Source: a virus. Taken from it: 34,917 nucleotides of DNA. The DNA lies in IMG/VR virus record IMGVR_UViG_3300000227_000001, positions 1 to 34,917 of that record; one strand, 5' to 3'. The position numbers were made by a program, and so were the translations under genes. How positions within the stretch are numbered: the first letter of the stretch is position 1; every line of letters starts with the position of its first letter. The notes beneath the pieces were generated by a model, which was not told the origin of the DNA, ran no database searches, and was given only the letters and a program-made list of their open reading frames with translations. Positions 1 to 34,917 of the stretch are shown here, piece by piece.

Positions 1-171
1 ACTAGGGTCTGATGCTCTGAGGAGCCCAGAATCAATCCTAGGGCCTCTCGGGCCCATGCCGAGCCGATGTTGGGCGGCCTCGGCCCATGCCGAGCCGATG
101 TTGGGCGGCCCTTGCTACAGAAGCTGCTACAGCTACAGTCGTTTTCCTATTCTCCTCTTAAAAACTCATTA
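1..171. repeat. Terminal redundancy: 171 bp identical to 34747-34917 (direct terminal repeat or circular-assembly overlap)
   Basis: Base-by-base reading shows 1-171 equals 34747-34917. The right copy stops inside the 165-bp repeat unit. Confidence 0.95.
51..110. repeat. Two tandem copies (period 31 bp) of the GC-rich 29-mer ggcccatgccgagccgatgttgggcggcc
   Basis: Copies at 51-79 and 82-110 are identical. Confidence 0.95.
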
Positions 172-275
172 GGAAGATTATTATACCTATATTTAATTTC
201 CTAATGAGCTTCTATTTCTAGAATAAGGAAAATACTGTAGCTGTAGCAGATTCTGTAGCAGGACTTGTGGACTCC
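111..275. repeat. 165-bp direct repeat, copy 1. Internally an imperfect palindrome around an AT-rich core.
   Basis: Identical to 317-481. The 28-nt outer arms (111-138 and 235-262) match 26/28 and carry CTACAG hexamers. The 11-bp inner arms ctcattaggaa (165-175) and ttcctaatgag (198-208) pair perfectly. Confidence 0.95.
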
Positions 276-280
276 ACATC

Positions 281-309
281 GGCCCATGCCGAGCCGATGT
301 TGGGTGGCC
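281..309. repeat. Third copy of the 29-mer, with one mismatch (ggcccatgccgagccgatgttgggTggcc)
   Basis: Direct comparison with 51-79 and 82-110. It is followed by an extra ctcggcc before the second 165-bp unit. Confidence 0.9.
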
Positions 310-316
310 CTCGGCC

Positions 317-481
317 CTTGCTACAGAAGCTGCTACAGCTACAGTCGTTTTCCTATTCTCCTCTTAAAAACTCATTAGGAAGATTATTATACCTATATTT
401 AATTTCCTAATGAGCTTCTATTTCTAGAATAAGGAAAATACTGTAGCTGTAGCAGATTCTGTAGCAGGACTTGTGGACTCC
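317..481. repeat. 165-bp direct repeat, copy 2 (perfect copy of 111-275)
   Basis: Character-by-character identity with 111-275. The repeat period is 206 bp. Confidence 0.95.
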
Positions 482-535: not shown

Positions 536-564
536 TATACATCGCCCCGCCGGCAAGCTATAAT
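536..564 (+). promoter_or_regulatory. Sigma70-like promoter for the rightward structural operon (TATACA-N17-TATAAT)
   Basis: -35 TATACA at 536-541, a 17-nt GC-rich spacer, and a perfect -10 TATAAT at 559-564, about 45 nt upstream of the small terminase ATG. It has the same architecture as the five leftward promoters. Confidence 0.6.
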
Positions 565-2308: not shown

Positions 2309-4387
2309 ATGGCCCGACCAACCAAAGAGCAACGACTTGCTGCCATCCACAAGGAGGCACTCGTCGAGTTCGACAACATCCAATCTGCCCTGCGCGATGA
2401 GCGACTGCAGTGCCTACAAGACCGCCGGTTTTACTCGGTCGCAGGTGCTCAGTGGGAAGGTCCATTGGGCGAGCAGTTCGAGAACAAGCCCAAGTTCGAG
2501 GTTAACAAGATTCACTTGGCTGTCATCCGCATCATCAACGAGTACCGCAACAACCGCATCACCGTCAACTTCGTGAGCAAGGAAGGCAAGGAGCACGACA
2601 AGCTGGCTGACATATGCGCCGGCCTGTACCGTGCCGACGAGCAGGACAGCGGCGCTGAAGAAGCTTATGACAACGCCTTTGAGGAAGGTGTGGCTGGCGG
2701 CTTTGGTGCGTGGCGTCTGCGCACAGTGTACGAGAACGAAGAGGACAAAGAGGACGAGAGGCAGCGTATCCGCATTGAGCCGATCTTTGATGCCGACTCG
2801 TCTGTATTCTTTGACCTGAACGCCAAGCGCCAAGACAAGGCTGACGCCAAGAGCTGCTTCGTCATCACGTCCATGACGCACCAAGCTTACAAGGATGAGT
2901 GGGGCGATGATCCAGCTTCGTGGCCGAAGGAAGTCCATCGGTATGAGTTCGATTGGCTGACGCCTGACGTCGTCTATGTGGCTGAGTACTACCGCGTCGA
3001 GGAGACCCGTGAGACCGTCTACGTCTGGGAGACCCTGAACGGCGATGAGGAACGCTACAATGACGCCGACTTCGAGGCTGATGAGACCTTGGAAGAGCGC
3101 CTGCTCGCTGTTGGCAGCCGTGAGGTTCGCCAGAAGACCATCAAGCGCCGCCGCGTCCGCAAGTACATCCTGTCAGGCGCCAAGATTCTCGAGGACTGCG
3201 GCTACATAGCCGGTAAGTGCATCCCCATCGTGCCCATGTACGGCAAGCGCTGGTTCGTTGACAACGTTGAGCGCTGCATGGGTCATGTCCGCTTGGCCAA
3301 GGATGCTCAGCGCTTGAAGAACATGCAGCTGTCGAAGCTCGGTGAAATCAGCGCCATGTCCTCGGTTGAGAAGCCCATCCTCACACCTGAACAAGTTGCC
3401 GGCCACCAAATAATGTGGGCTAATGACAACATCAAGAACTTTCCCTATCTGCTTGTCAATCCCATTACTGACGCCAATGGTAATCAAGCCATTTCTGGTC
3501 CGATCGGTTACACCAAACCGCCTCAGGTTCCACAGGCTTTGGCTGCTCTGCTGCAAATCACTGAGCAGGACATGAAGGACCTGCTTGGTAACCAGCAGGC
3601 CGGCGAAGAGCTCCAGCCCAATATCAGTGGCAAAGCAGTTGAGCTCGTGCAGAACAAGCTCGACATGCAAACCTTCATCTACATGAGCAACATGAGCAAG
3701 GCCATCAAACGCTCAGGTGAAATTTGGTTGAGCATGGCTAAGGATGTTCTGGTCGAAGAAGGCCGCAAGATGAAGTCCATCGGCCCACAAGGCGAGATTC
3801 AGTCAGTCGAACTGGCCAAGCCCATGATTAACGAGAAGGGCGAGATTGGGATTGAGAACGACTTGTCTGACGCCGAGTTCGACGTCAGTGTGGACGTCGG
3901 CCCTTCGTCTTCTAGTAAGCGTGCCGCCACGGTCCGTGCTCTAACCGGTATGGCTTCCCTGACCGATGACGCTGAGACCAAGCAGGTCCTTGGCGCCATG
4001 GCCATGATGAATATGGAAGGCGAAGGTATCACTGAGGTGCGCGACTACTTCCGCAAGAAGTTGCTCCGCATGGGAGTCGTCAAGCCCACTGAGGAAGAAC
4101 AGCGGGCCATGGCTGAGGAAGCTCAGAACGCCAAGCCCAATCCGAATGAGCAGTACTTGCAGGCAGCGGCCGATGAGGCCACGGCCAATGCCACTCAGGC
4201 TCGCGCCAAGACCATCCTCACGATTGCCCAGGCAGATGAAACCAAGGCCAAGACTATGAAGACACTGGCTGAAGTGAACTCGTCAGAGCAGCGCCAGGCC
4301 ATTGAGGTCATCGAAAAGTTAGGTGGATTGGGCCAGGTCCAACCTCAAGGGGCCGAAACTGTATCCCAGAACGGCACTTCACTGTAA
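2309..4387 (+). CDS. Portal protein, P22 gp1-like
   Basis: 692 aa. The block IKRRRVRKYILSGAKILEDCGYIAGKCIPIVPMYGKRWFVDNVERCMGHVRLAKDAQRLKNM closely resembles my recollection of P22 portal (IKRRRVYKSII...[35 protein letters not shown]). The C-terminus is helical and Ala/Gln-rich. Confidence 0.9.
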   Translation: MARPTKEQRLAAIHKEALVEFDNIQSALRDERLQCLQDRRFYSVAGAQWEGPLGEQFENKPKFEVNKIHLAVIRIINEYRNNRITVNFVSKEGKEHDKLADICAGLYRADEQDSGAEEAYDNAFEEGVAGGFGAWRLRTVYENEEDKEDERQRIRIEPIFDADSSVFFDLNAKRQDKADAKSCFVITSMTHQAYKDEWGDDPASWPKEVHRYEFDWLTPDVVYVAEYYRVEETRETVYVWETLNGDEERYNDADFEADETLEERLLAVGSREVRQKTIKRRRVRKYILSGAKILEDCGYIAGKCIPIVPMYGKRWFVDNVERCMGHVRLAKDAQRLKNMQLSKLGEISAMSSVEKPILTPEQVAGHQIMWANDNIKNFPYLLVNPITDANGNQAISGPIGYTKPPQVPQALAALLQITEQDMKDLLGNQQAGEELQPNISGKAVELVQNKLDMQTFIYMSNMSKAIKRSGEIWLSMAKDVLVEEGRKMKSIGPQGEIQSVELAKPMINEKGEIGIENDLSDAEFDVSVDVGPSSSSKRAATVRALTGMASLTDDAETKQVLGAMAMMNMEGEGITEVRDYFRKKLLRMGVVKPTEEEQRAMAEEAQNAKPNPNEQYLQAAADEATANATQARAKTILTIAQADETKAKTMKTLAEVNSSEQRQAIEVIEKLGGLGQVQPQGAETVSQNGTSL

Positions 4388-8010: not shown

Positions 8011-8472
8011 ATGTGTTTCAACTTTTCAAGTGGGGATAACTTTACCGAAGGTGTCACCTCGGTTGCTCCCATCTACAGCGTTTTTGACAACACGGCAAAC
8101 GGCAGTGACAAGTCTTTTACTGTTCCGGCTGGCGAAATGTGGAAGATCATGTATGCCAACGTCAAACTTGTAACGTCCGCAACAGCTGGCGCCCGTCAAT
8201 TGCGTCTCACTATGACCGATCCAAGCGGCAACGAAGTTGGTTATATCTCGGCAGGCGCGGTGCAGAATTCATCCTTGGTATACAACTATGGATTCTTTCA
8301 GGGCATTAATCGTGAAACGTCATTTATAGACAACATGATTCAAGTTCCAATCCCCATTGACCTGTATCTGCCCGCTGGTTCGACTATTCGATTCCACGAC
8401 TCGGCAGCCGTTGACCCTGCCGCTGACTACATGGTGGTATCTTTTGGTGCGCAGCTCTTCAAGGGATGCTGA
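8011..8472 (+). CDS. Hypothetical virion-module protein (153 aa)
   Basis: ATG at 8011 follows taaggagaacatt. The upstream extension in the ORF track overlaps the previous gene. Confidence 0.7.
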   Translation: MCFNFSSGDNFTEGVTSVAPIYSVFDNTANGSDKSFTVPAGEMWKIMYANVKLVTSATAGARQLRLTMTDPSGNEVGYISAGAVQNSSLVYNYGFFQGINRETSFIDNMIQVPIPIDLYLPAGSTIRFHDSAAVDPAADYMVVSFGAQLFKGC

Positions 8473-30613: not shown

Positions 30614-30754
30614 TTATTCGACCGCGATCAACCGACCAGCATCGCTGTCGTGCTCCTCATTTGGCATTGGCTTACACCAGCACTCGAGTGTAAGCTCGTG
30701 CTCGCTCAGGTCGTTGACCGGCACGACATGGTAGCGGCGAGGGCTATTGAACAT
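30614..30754 (-). CDS. Small hypothetical protein (46 aa; H..L.LECWCKP motif)
   Basis: ATG at 30754 overlaps the end of the DnaJ-like gene. The upstream part of the track ORF lies inside that gene. Confidence 0.5.
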   Translation of the reverse strand: MFNSPRRYHVVPVNDLSEHELTLECWCKPMPNEEHDSDAGRLIAVE

Positions 30755-31025
30755 GCCCGGTTCCTCCGCAGGCCATGCAGGGCATGTCGATCGAGCTGAA
30801 CCCACGGCTTTGCTTGATCTTGCCGGTTCCGTTGCACTGAGGGCACGCCTTGGGTGCCGAGGCTTCCTCCATGGCGATCTTGTAGGCCTTGCGAATCTCG
30901 TTGAAGTCGCAAGGATTCCCTCCGCGATCGGGGTGGTTCACCATGACCAGCTCGCGCCACTTCGCCTTGACTTCGTCAGGCGTCGCGGTCTCAGGCAAGC
31001 CTAAAGCCGTGAACGCCTTGCTCAT
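30744..31025 (-). CDS. Mini-DnaJ: J-domain with HPD motif fused to two CxxCxGxG zinc-finger repeats
   Basis: The J-domain is LGLPETATPDEVKAKWRELVMVNHPDRGG. The zinc-finger repeats are CPQCNGTG and CMACGGTG. Confidence 0.85.
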   Translation of the reverse strand: MSKAFTALGLPETATPDEVKAKWRELVMVNHPDRGGNPCDFNEIRKAYKIAMEEASAPKACPQCNGTGKIKQSRGFSSIDMPCMACGGTGHVQ

Positions 31026-31877: not shown

Positions 31878-33977
31878 TCAATATTTTGAGCCTTTCGAGC
31901 CGCTTTGTTTCTTCATCCAGTCATCGAGGTGCTTCACAGCAGCTTGCGGAGTCGCCGTCAACCACTGGTCCGCGTTGCGCACCGCGTAGTACCGGCCTTG
32001 CGATCCATCGTGAAGCCGCACCGGCTTGCCACCGCAGATTTGACGAACCCCGGCCCTAGCCAGCTCGCGACCAAGACCGTTGGCGGTCGTACCCGTCTTG
32101 CCGGTCGGGTCGTAGAACTGCAGCAGCTCCTTCGACGTGAACAGGTCCTTGCCAACCACAACGTCGCCGACACGCAGAACAAAGTCAGGAGACGCCATGA
32201 GGCTTCGCACCCAGCCGGCCAGATCAGACTGCATGTTCGCGATCATGCGCTCCTTGGCCATGGTCTTGAAGGCCGGGGCTGCTGGGTTGAAGTCGCCGAG
32301 GTCCAGGTTCAGCAGGTAGTCGAACACGGCAGCCGATCCTCCGGTGTCCAACCAGAGGTCGTACTCCATGTAGAACGCTTCGTCCATCGGCCCTACCTGC
32401 ACCTCATGGATGAAGAACCGCCGGTCATCGTCTTCAAGGAAAAACGAGTCCGGGTGGTTGGCCGTAAAGAAGTAGTTGATGCAGTCAGGCACCACGTAGG
32501 TTGGGACATACTTACCGTTGACACGGAGATCGCGCTGGGTGATGAGCTTCTTGAGGAAGTCAGCATCTTGCCGCTTGTTCGATCCGGTCACGTCGTCGCC
32601 CATAACAAACTGACGGCCCTCAGCCCACTCGTTGAAGCTGCTGTGCAGGTCCATCTGGCTGATCTCGGTGAAGTTCTGGCCATAAATCCTACCCAAGGTG
32701 TAGCCGATCAGCGACTTACCAGTGCCGTGCTTGATGCCGTGGATGACGACCGAGCTGAACAGCTTGACGCCTGGGTGCTGCAGCGGGTACGCGCACCACT
32801 TGAGAAACCAGTCCTTGGCTTTAGGTTCGGCACCGGTGAAGATGTGGTCAACGAGCTGCAAGAACAAGCTGACGTCGCCCTTAACTGGCTCAACACCCCA
32901 ACCCGGCCAGATGTTGTACATCGGTAGCGGGCCATCGATGAACTTGTCGCGGCCTGGTTGGTAGGTGAGTTTAGCCACCTCAGTACGCAACGGCCAGCGG
33001 AGCCAAGCCTGGGCGGCTGGCACGGTAGTGAAGCTCACTGAACCGTCGGCCTTGAGCTTCCGCTCCTGGTAGTTGCGGGTGGCTTCAAGGTGGCCGGTGA
33101 AAGCGTTGGGCGTTGACTTGAAGGCCGTCTGCTGGTCAATGATCAGACCCGGGTTCTGCACGTAGACGTACTTCTGATTGAGCGCCCAGAGGGGACGAGT
33201 CAGCCCCAGGGGCTCAGCCTCAGCCAGCAGGTTCCGGAACATCTGGTTGGCAGTCGGCCCGGCGTGCACGAGGAAGTCATCCAAGCCGACCTTCTCCAGA
33301 CCCTCAAGGGCGGGCAGCGAGACAATGTGGGCGAAGGCACCTCGGCGATGAAGCTCCTCAGCCAGCTCATGCAAAGCCGCGCAGACCATGGGGTTGGTGG
33401 TGTAATCCGAGTCGAAGCAGATGTAGACGTTGCGCTTCACCCACCGAACAGGCTCGAGGCTGGGAAGCCAGTCAAGACCCAGCTTGCGGCTGCGCCAATT
33501 ATAAACTCCACCGATACCGATGGTGGGGAACCCCTCCTTGCAGGCCTTGGCCGACTTCAGCTCGCCTTCTGTGATGATCAGTGGCCGATCGACGTCCTCA
33601 ACCAACTCAGCCCATGCTTGGTTGGCTGGGAAATAGGCAACAGGAGCTGTGTTGGGCTCCTGCGCGTAGCGTAGCGGTTTCTTGTTAGCCAGTGAGGCGA
33701 AGTCAGCGCCTGTCTCGAGATACCGCAGCCGGTAGAACGGCTTGGACCCAGGCCAGTCAGCCAGAGGTTCCCCATCGATGCCGAAGTAGTCGAGGCGCAG
33801 ACTGCAAAGCGGCTTGAAAGCTGGGTGGAGGGCGGCCGTCTGCTCGCCGCTAAGGAACGTCATGCCGAGGATATTGGCATCCTCGATGGTGAGGCCAGAT
33901 GAGGCTAACTTTGCTTCACCCAGGCTGAATGCTTTTGAATTAGTAACTGCTGGTTTCTTCTTGGTTGTCCGTGCCAT
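31878..33977 (-). CDS. Bifunctional DNA primase / SF3 helicase (TOPRIM plus P4/D5-type NTPase)
   Basis: TOPRIM motifs are LIITEGELKSAK and ICFDSDY. The Walker A motif is HGIKHGTGKS. The protein is 699 aa. Confidence 0.9.
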   Translation of the reverse strand: MARTTKKKPAVTNSKAFSLGEAKLASSGLTIEDANILGMTFLSGEQTAALHPAFKPLCSLRLDYFGIDGEPLADWPGSKPFYRLRYLETGADFASLANKKPLRYAQEPNTAPVAYFPANQAWAELVEDVDRPLIITEGELKSAKACKEGFPTIGIGGVYNWRSRKLGLDWLPSLEPVRWVKRNVYICFDSDYTTNPMVCAALHELAEELHRRGAFAHIVSLPALEGLEKVGLDDFLVHAGPTANQMFRNLLAEAEPLGLTRPLWALNQKYVYVQNPGLIIDQQTAFKSTPNAFTGHLEATRNYQERKLKADGSVSFTTVPAAQAWLRWPLRTEVAKLTYQPGRDKFIDGPLPMYNIWPGWGVEPVKGDVSLFLQLVDHIFTGAEPKAKDWFLKWCAYPLQHPGVKLFSSVVIHGIKHGTGKSLIGYTLGRIYGQNFTEISQMDLHSSFNEWAEGRQFVMGDDVTGSNKRQDADFLKKLITQRDLRVNGKYVPTYVVPDCINYFFTANHPDSFFLEDDDRRFFIHEVQVGPMDEAFYMEYDLWLDTGGSAAVFDYLLNLDLGDFNPAAPAFKTMAKERMIANMQSDLAGWVRSLMASPDFVLRVGDVVVGKDLFTSKELLQFYDPTGKTGTTANGLGRELARAGVRQICGGKPVRLHDGSQGRYYAVRNADQWLTATPQAAVKHLDDWMKKQSGSKGSKY

Positions 33978-34193: not shown

Positions 34194-34586
34194 CTAGAGC
34201 CGCTCGATTGTGATGATCTTATCATCATCAACTATGCAGTCATAACGTCCTTTACCTTTGCTGAGATAGACAGCCAGCGTAGCAGGCGTCTTCTTGATAA
34301 GCTCAGCCGCCTCCCCAGTTGTACAAAGAACTGAGCCGCCCCCTTGCCATGTAACGCGGCAATTTGGGTTCTGTGCTCGAGCCTCGACGGTAGCCCGCGC
34401 TTTGCCTCCTGGCGCCCAGGCAGCTTTACGGCGGTCAACAAAGAGGTCATCTGTGGAACCTACATAGGTCTGCAATCGAATGATCTGGTCTGCCACTTCT
34501 TGGCGCTTGGATGCTTGGATGGCGCTCACAACATCAAATAGATCCTTGATGAGTTGTGGGTCAGGCTTCTTGTCAGTCTTTTTCAT
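34194..34586 (-). CDS. Hypothetical early protein (130 aa), first gene of the leftward arm
   Basis: ATG at 34586 (MKKTDKKPDP...). The upstream 65 codons of the track ORF run into the noncoding control region. I saw no clear SD. Confidence 0.6.
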   Translation of the reverse strand: MKKTDKKPDPQLIKDLFDVVSAIQASKRQEVADQIIRLQTYVGSTDDLFVDRRKAAWAPGGKARATVEARAQNPNCRVTWQGGGSVLCTTGEAAELIKKTPATLAVYLSKGKGRYDCIVDDDKIITIERL

Positions 34587-34625
34587 TTCGGAATCTTTAG
34601 GAAGTTGTCTGGAAGATTCTACGTT

Positions 34626-34654
34626 AAACTTTGCTGGAAGTACATAGCCGAGTA
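34626..34654 (-). promoter_or_regulatory. Weaker candidate early promoter (TGTACT-N17-TAGAAT)
   Basis: Read on the minus strand: TAGAAT (34631-34626), with TGTACT 17 nt upstream, about 40 nt before the 34586 start. Confidence 0.35.
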
Positions 34655-34746
34655 GGCACGGAGAGCGAACGCGGAGCCGCGTGGGCCCCGGCCGCCAGAG
34701 GCCCCAGAAGGTCCCAGAGGCGTTTTGCACAGCAGGTAATAGGGTG

Positions 34747-34917
34747 ACTAGGGTCTGATGCTCTGAGGAGCCCAGAATCAATCCTAGGGCCTCTCGGGCC
34801 CATGCCGAGCCGATGTTGGGCGGCCTCGGCCCATGCCGAGCCGATGTTGGGCGGCCCTTGCTACAGAAGCTGCTACAGCTACAGTCGTTTTCCTATTCTC
34901 CTCTTAAAAACTCATTA
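34747..34917. repeat. Right copy of the 171-bp terminal redundancy
   Basis: Identical to 1-171. Confidence 0.95.

Follow-up and report, generated by a model that had tools for sequence, protein, structure and literature searches.

What does a long, tandemly duplicated palindrome do at the point from which the two gene arms of a phage genome diverge? The question is raised by the IMG/VR virus record IMGVR_UViG_3300000227_000001, analysed here over its positions 1 to 34,917 (the window). An earlier note on this sequence had drawn attention to two identical palindromic units between positions 111 and 481 and had listed four possible roles for them: a replication origin, a packaging (pac) or terminase recognition site, a cruciform regulatory switch, or the template of a structured RNA. 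The origin is the best supported of the four, since its layout of short repeats (iterons) around an AT-rich core is kept in related phages, travels with a superfamily 3 (SF3) helicase and matches the origins published for the pathogenicity islands of Staphylococcus aureus (SaPIs). We propose, with our confidence about evenly divided between this and all other explanations, that each 152-bp unit is a bipartite, dyad-symmetric iteron/AT-rich origin for the phage's own primase/SF3-helicase and that it was recently duplicated. The proposal builds on the anatomy of the element, its uniqueness in the genome, the conservation of its layout while the repeats change, and the identity of the helicase.

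The identity of the two copies and their period of 206 bp stand as first described, while the identical stretch, given as 165 bp, is 170 bp long (106-275 equal to 312-481, 100%) and reaches 5 bp further to the left. Each copy contains an imperfect palindrome of 152 bp (unit 1 at 111-262, unit 2 at 317-468) in which 116 of the 152 positions are self-complementary, and the outer 28-nt arms (111-138 and 235-262 in unit 1) match as inverted repeats at 26 of 28 positions. The arms hold CTACAG hexamers, three forward and three inverted in each unit. In the left array of unit 1 (113-138, plus strand) the (G)CTACAG repeats are located at 115, 127 and 133, with a spacing of 12 bp and then 6 bp, and in the right array (235-260, minus strand), which is inverted relative to the left one, CTGTAG is located at 235, 241 and 253. 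Unit 2 is identical, with CTACAG at 321, 333 and 339, its core at 345-440, and CTGTAG at 441, 447 and 459. Between the arrays of unit 1 lies a core of 96 bp (139-234), a putative unwinding element, with a GC content of 26% as compared to 56.9% genome-wide. It includes a perfect 11-bp inverted repeat (165-175 and 198-208) and an inner dyad formed by CCTATTCT and AGAATAAGG. The TAGAAT boxes (219-224, 425-430) and the palindromic ttctagaa were confirmed, whereas the 22-nt loop at 176-197, which had been called AT-only, has A or T at 19 of its 22 positions.

GC-rich repeats of 31 bp form part of the 206-bp unit and adjoin each iteron array. Two overlapping copies of 31-33 bp (GGCCCATGCCGAGCCGATGTTGGGCGGCC, 49-81 and 80-112) adjoin the left array of unit 1, and a third (279-311) is located in the junction between the units (263-316), where it follows the perfect palindrome GTGGACTCCAC (267-277). 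Five matches to this repeat were obtained against 0.02 expected, and it was found neither in the relatives described below nor, by exact search, in IMG/VR. The GTGGACTCCAC palindrome stands directly after unit 1, and after unit 2 the sequence diverges at 482 (GTGGACTCCGC); a related locus, L141, has GTGGACT at the equivalent relative position. An iteron-like CCTTGCTACACAA within the small terminase gene terS (890-902) matches the left edge of the units at 12 of 13 positions, which may be due to chance.

No other part of the genome resembles the element in base composition, in that the only 100-bp segments with a GC fraction of 0.34 or less are located at 111-279 and 317-482. CTACAG or CTGTAG occurs 23 times in the whole window as compared to 10.9 ± 3.7 expected, a number that was reached in none of 100 shuffles, and 12 of the 23 sites are located in the element and another 3 in a copy of its left end that terminates the window. 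Folded as single-stranded DNA, the 152-nt unit yielded -46.1 kcal/mol, compared with -12.0 ± 2.9 for dinucleotide shuffles (z = -11.9).

SaPI origins consist of 6-12 penta- or hexanucleotide iterons and an AT-rich centre, with at least two iterons per side in opposite directions; the iterons are recognised, through its winged-helix C-terminal domain, by a self-loading SF3 Rep protein, which in SaPI5 is fused to a primase and has the NrS-1 helicase as its nearest structure (PMC9371898). The element has six hexamers per unit, 12 in total, with three forward and three inverted repeats on either side of the AT-rich core, and the genome encodes an SF3 protein fused to a primase that likewise has NrS-1 as its best match. 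Unlike in the SaPIs, the primase domain is of the DnaG/TOPRIM type, the AT-rich core is a long imperfect palindrome, and the whole origin candidate is tandemly duplicated.

The candidate initiator is a fused DnaG-type TOPRIM primase/SF3 helicase of 699 aa (31878-33977, minus strand), with the domains DUF3854 (TOPRIM-type) and DUF5906, and its best match in the PDB by sequence is the NrS-1 helicase region. An AlphaFold model of the protein had a mean predicted local distance difference test (pLDDT) score of 76. The C-terminal half of the model matched the C-terminal region of NrS-1 (E = 5e-9) as well as the poxvirus D5/E5 helicases, and the N-terminal half matched the catalytic core of DnaG (E about 1e-6). 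When modelled alone, the last 115 residues reached a pLDDT of 90 and displayed a topology of three helices followed by a beta-hairpin. The top fold matches of this domain were all winged-helix DNA-binding proteins (PadR, PerR, AhrC, HSF1 and Rpc5), none of them significant (best Foldseek E = 0.06). The domain may thus be described as winged-helix-like, and it is the part of the protein that we propose reads the iterons.

Under the proposed scheme, the helicase would bind the three CTACAG hexamers of each arm, probably via its winged-helix-like C-terminal domain, and two helicase hexamers would assemble in opposite orientations on either side of the 96-bp core of 26% GC, which would then melt. 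Once separated, the strands may be stabilised by hairpins that the inner inverted repeats form. The TOPRIM domain would prime synthesis, to be extended by the phage PolA (27033-28946), and the forks would exit both ways, each co-directional with the transcription of the arm that it enters. A duplicated unit would double the capacity for initiator binding. Initiator binding, core melting, bidirectional firing and any benefit of the duplication are the parts of this scheme that we infer.

Comparable combinations of protein and repeats are known from the satellite phage P4, where a single polypeptide, the alpha protein, unites TOPRIM primase, SF3 helicase and C-terminal DNA-binding domains and recognises short repeats in both orientations. 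The crr region of P4 is made up of a pair of direct repeats, each about 120 bp long and with short repeats of this kind, and ori and crr are kilobases apart. P4 and the window share the protein domain classes, and the two repeats of crr resemble the two 170-bp units, but the P4 repeats are a different octamer and P4 is without a long AT-rich palindrome. On the most likely reading, the element belongs to this known class of SaPI, P4 and viral SF3-type origins.

To place the element in its family, we used related loci (L-numbers) from a search of IMG/VR with the large terminase subunit, TerL, which identified 55 loci with 56-94% identity. BLASTN searches of these loci yielded no match at E <= 1e-3 for the intergenic region of 770 bp, the palindrome, the 206-bp unit or the 31-bp repeat. 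In the close relatives, homology at the nucleotide level starts exactly at the ATG codon of terS, and the sequence upstream could not be aligned by BLAST. Because BLASTN found no upstream homology, the comparison was made by reading the architecture of the upstream 460 bp in about 35 loci. The comparison with related phages, which the earlier note had suggested as a check, revealed the same layout at the same place in these approximately 35 relatives, but in a single copy and with repeat and core sequences that vary between lineages.

The shared layout starts with forward GCTACA[GC] repeats, continues with a core that is AT-rich and pyrimidine-rich and then purine-rich, and is followed by inverted CTGTAG repeats. 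Often there is then a second pair of repeats, GCTACAC-N5-GCTACAC, ahead of a TTTACG-17-TACGAT promoter and terS. The sequence of the core varies from phage to phage and is not alignable. More distant loci have the same layout with other repeats, namely TGGCCGTGTG / CACACGGCCA in L154-156, CCCCGTGAAA / TTTCACGGGG in L157 and CCTCAGAA / TTCTGAGG in L153, while those of MW202621 are CTGTTTCT / AGAAACAG. At the same place, the cultured siphoviruses AXL3 and PW916, whose primases are 58% identical to that of the window, have inverted CAGAAT repeats that flank an AT-rich core. In the closer relative L180, with a primase of 86% identity, the element consists of 3 + 3 iterons with a perfect 12-bp inner dyad, in one copy and with no 31-bp repeat. 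Nothing is said of the region in the papers published on AXL3, PW916 and CUB19. The loci L158-L174, whose TerL is distantly related, have different TerS genes and lack such an element; this does not discriminate between the hypotheses. Two other approaches were discarded: a 16-mer of the iteron arm (GCTGCTACAGCTACAG) used as a probe of IMG/VR gave more than 118 unrelated single matches and was uninformative, and a score for the pyrimidine-to-purine strand asymmetry of the core was not discriminating, the window itself being only moderate. A conserved CCTTGCTGAGGAG motif was observed just upstream of several start codons (L183 at 8092-8105 and 2318-2331, L141 at 2728-2745, and the AXL3 junction); it looks like an extended ribosome-binding region and in part resembles the CCTTGCTAC left edge of the units.

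The strength of the palindrome varies among these phages. For 150-bp elements, the z values of the DNA fold were -12.5 in the window, -8.1 in L141, -6.5 in PW916, -5.3 in L157, -4.2 in AXL3, -3.9 in L156 and -3.7 in L143, and ranged from -0.4 to -2 in the common L120/L164 type, for which the 150-bp segments had the AT minimum rather than the true centre at their midpoint and whose values may for that reason be understated. Because the fold is weak in this common type, a long hairpin is not required, and the feature that characterises the family is a set of opposed short repeats around an AT-rich core.

These values also bear on the suggestion that the element is the template of a structured RNA, in this case a hairpin of about 150 nt encoded in two copies. 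The predicted RNA fold of the unit is very stable (-75.4 kcal/mol, z = -12.5), but the palindrome folds equally well on both strands, as any DNA palindrome would, and neither the extended hairpin nor the core sequence is conserved in most close relatives. No promoter or terminator brackets the element. A scan of the whole window with Rfam 15 gave zero matches at the gathering score, and a permissive scan gave only plant miRNA-precursor models, on both strands and with 28-42 bits as compared to cut-offs of 85-200, which we regard as hairpin noise. We therefore consider a structured RNA very improbable.

An exact match to the consensus of the integration host factor (IHF; WATCAANNNNTTR) is present as AATCAACAACTTA beside the element in most of the L120-L164 relatives, at about -184 and about -357 from the terS ATG. 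The consensus is very rare elsewhere in these loci, and it is located beside the unit rather than at its centre. It has no match anywhere in the window, where the 31-bp GC-rich repeat occupies the place at which the relatives carry the IHF-consensus site.

A pac site is the main alternative and calls for the closest comparison. If the element served a headful terminase, oligomers of the small subunit, TerS, would bind both hexamer arrays and bend or wrap the AT-rich core, and TerL would make its first cut nearby. The pac site of P1 provides a precedent, with 161 bp in which the hexamer sets HEX4 and HEX3 flank an IHF site, where the centre is bent, and the site of cleavage by the terminase (PMC10028697). 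The element is of similar size and has two hexamer sets (3 + 3) around a centre. The P1 site differs in that it lies inside pacA and has hexamers with the Dam sequence GATC, whereas the element is intergenic, has CTACAG hexamers without GATC, is centred on a long AT-rich palindrome and has no IHF consensus between its repeat sets, the consensus in close relatives being located beside the unit. In favour of packaging, CUB19, with a TerL that is 60% identical to that of the window, packages by the headful mechanism, and the element is always located just upstream of the terS-terL-portal block, even in L153-157, in which the upstream genes are co-oriented.

Because this position would suit a pac site too, we compared lineages for the protein family that accompanies the element. 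An SF3 helicase was encoded near the element in every lineage examined. The window group combines the window family of TerS with a DUF3854 + DUF5906 primase-helicase, and L153-157 combine the same TerS family with a more distant SF3 protein (PriCT_2 + DUF5906, E = 1e-10 to the helicase domain of the window). AXL3 and PW916 have a TerS with a related core (E = 2e-15) and an SF3 helicase of the same family (58%); the TerL of AXL3 is unrelated to that of the window. In MW202621 and L185, the helicase is again of the same family (53% and 68%, respectively), whereas TerS is unrelated (E = 8 in MW202621, Terminase_2 in L185), and yet an element of the same layout is present. Edwardsiella phage ZHS presents the opposite combination, with the window family of TerS but no element, the sequence upstream of terS being GC-rich with no AT-rich core.

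The sequence of TerS itself can be read both ways. The family, seen also in L153 (3624-3995), L156 (2253-2663) and L186 (from about 2957), starts with a glycine/arginine-rich stretch that contains GRP or GRKP (GGARRGAGRPRG in the window, 609-660, residues 1-17); it resembles an AT-hook and could bind the AT-rich core. This is followed by the invariant LPHEWLL (LPHELLL in ZHS), the most conserved helix of the protein. The constancy of this helix where the repeats are entirely different speaks against a pac site. The TerS N-terminus likewise varies little between phages with entirely different repeats. The separation of the element from terS in L180 by a tRNA-Pro(TGG) gene and a second tRNA-like gene (38-190), the lack of an IHF consensus in the window, and the presence of an iteron inside the primase-helicase promoter of relatives also argue against packaging. 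The proposal of a pac site thus retains its positional support, but the replacement of the TerS family under an unchanged layout makes it unlikely in our view.

The promoter just mentioned is that of the L120-type relatives, in which the leftward arm begins with the primase-helicase gene and the 17-bp spacer of its TTTACA-17-TAGAAT promoter contains an iteron. By analogy, this is the arrangement that would be expected of an autoregulated initiator. In L153, a 126-aa protein encoded immediately upstream of the element (3001-3381, plus strand) is a paralog of the C-terminal domain of the SF3 helicase of L153 (59-1633, plus strand), with 36% identity over 78 aa (E = 2e-11). Judging from the similarity, it could be a stand-alone origin-binding or regulatory copy.

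An iteron within a promoter may equally be taken to mean that the element is a transcriptional control region, with the hexamers as operators that time divergent early and late promoters and the AT-rich core as a promoter, UP or bending element. The element is indeed located between divergent transcription units and has a TAGAAT box in its core, and the C-terminal part of the 130-aa protein encoded by the first leftward gene reads like a helix-turn-helix. However, the only promoter-like site within positions 1-700 is a sigma-70-like TATACA-17-TATAAT upstream of terS (536-564, plus strand), which lies outside and downstream of the element, and no such site was found within 34400-34917. The arrays lie at a distance of 150-350 bp from the start codons, most relatives with the element lack the small leftward gene, and genomes of the L153 type keep the element without divergent transcription. 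Taken together, we find a role confined to transcriptional control improbable.

Why there are two units is a separate matter. The earlier note had left the choice between recent duplication and strong constraint; duplication is favoured, since the element is present in a single copy in every relative examined, and the evidence thus favours a recent tandem duplication as the source of the second, identical unit. What sets the window apart, namely its duplication in tandem, the GC-rich 31-bp repeats and the great strength of the dyad, comes from one assembly, as does the copy number of two. Exact searches with the core in IMG/VR and the JGI collections and with the 31-bp repeat in IMG/VR, as well as exact look-ups of two proteins of the window, gave no independent assembly of the duplication. 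The break of the contig falls inside the palindrome of unit 1, and since the last 171 bp are equal to the first 171 bp, the apparent third, partial copy at the right-hand end is copy 1 once more. The metagenomic contigs L128, L140, L142, L180, L181 and L182 likewise terminate inside their own elements or no more than a few hundred bp away, and this clustering of contig ends suggests either difficulty in assembling the region or variation within populations.

The break inside a repeat and the single assembly could be taken as signs that the duplication is an assembly artefact, and the 28-bp terminal inverted arms with an AT-rich interior resemble a miniature inverted-repeat transposable element (MITE) that was inserted and duplicated. 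An artefact is contradicted by the unique junction at 263-316, which runs from the right-hand end of one palindrome into the left-hand end of the following one and which an assembler cannot create from a single-copy locus; because of this junction, at least two tandem copies must have existed in the reads. As for a mobile element, the same kind of element is located at the same locus in relatives, the flanks have no target-site duplication, and no further copies were identified in the genome, in IMG/VR or in the JGI collections. We give hardly any weight to either of these explanations. Two other identities were rejected. A hairpin telomere or a site for a protelomerase does not fit, in that the palindrome is asymmetric at its centre and there was no protelomerase among the proteins examined. 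Against an N4-type hairpin promoter stands the lack of a virion RNA polymerase, which would not fit into a genome of this size and was not seen.

It could also be asked whether the palindrome itself, rather than the iterons, is the functional part. The OriL of herpes simplex virus (HSV) is a long palindrome between divergent genes. The element is similar to OriS and OriL in having inverted initiator boxes, an AT-rich spacer within a palindrome, and an origin in more than one copy, but the HSV initiator UL9 is a dimer of an SF2 helicase and not an SF3 hexamer, the boxes are longer and the virus is eukaryotic, so that the analogy is one of design only. The unwound HSV origin has been proposed to refold as a hairpin that is recognised by the initiator helicase (PMC12543377). 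By analogy with this OriS* structure, the near-complete 152-bp dyad might be functional in that the strands, after melting, would snap back into a hairpin or cruciform that loads or activates the SF3 helicase. Such a structure could also serve as an entry point for the terminase in a combined ori/pac module, and the duplication would then be an adaptive gain, for example through a higher firing rate or an escape from a host factor that targets the origin. We think that a function of this kind for the dyad is rather unlikely.

Several observations weigh against an origin that is served by the primase/SF3-helicase. The assignment of its C-terminal domain to the winged-helix fold is a matter of model topology only. 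A C-terminal helix of the helicase, TANGLGRELARAG, varies very little among phages whose repeats are quite unlike one another, and no co-variation of the C-terminal domain with the iteron sequence was seen, in that the protein changes little and the repeats change completely. In SaPIs, the iterons directly follow rep on its downstream side. The element, by contrast, is on the upstream side of the helicase gene and, in the window, about 0.8 kb distant from the start of that gene. Neither GC skew nor purine excess gave a signal of an origin, since both reflect gene orientation only. The constant position of the element on the upstream side of the packaging genes fits a pac site too, and the IHF consensus, present beside the element in relatives and absent from the window, fits an origin or a pac site alike. 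Finally, the elements of L185 and MW202621 are less clear-cut than those of the close relatives, and in L183 the same primase family is encoded in a long string of co-oriented genes with no such element beside the primase gene.

The genome context is as follows. The terminal duplicate of 1-171 (34747-34917), which represents circular overlap or terminal redundancy and ends within unit 1, indicates that the window is a phage genome of about 34,746 bp that is circular, permuted or terminally redundant. Once the window is read as circular, the element is located between divergent early and late arms, as the earlier note had held, in a gap of about 770 bp and at 140-500 bp upstream of terS. The rightward arm on the plus strand starts at 609 with terS, the small terminase candidate of 122 aa (609-977) with GGARRGAGRPRG at its N-terminus, and continues with terL, a P22-like portal and structural genes. 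The leftward arm, on the minus strand from about 34587 to about 19354, encodes a small protein of no recognised family, the 699-aa primase-helicase, a DnaJ-like protein, PolA, an SNF2 helicase and thymidylate synthase. The first leftward gene (34194-34586, minus strand, 130 aa) has no family match, and since relatives either lack it or have it in variable form, it is not needed by the element. The DnaJ-like protein, a small one with a J-domain and a zinc finger (30744-31025, minus strand), is located a few genes away from the primase-helicase and is kept in the replication arms of AXL3 (gp60), PW916, L179, L180, L183 and L185. There are no tRNA genes in the window.

For very few phages has the replication origin been mapped, and in metagenomic genomes such origins almost always go without annotation. 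That the present element is duplicated and so extremely palindromic is a curiosity that introduces no new principle. The broader signature, with opposed short repeats around the only AT-rich island of the genome, beside a primase/SF3-helicase gene, is shared by a wide group of environmental phages and by the cultured phages AXL3 and PW916, which makes the prediction testable in the laboratory. If it is true, the SaPI/P4 style of self-loading SF3 origins would extend to lytic tailed phages, and the signature would provide a simple rule for the annotation of their origins.

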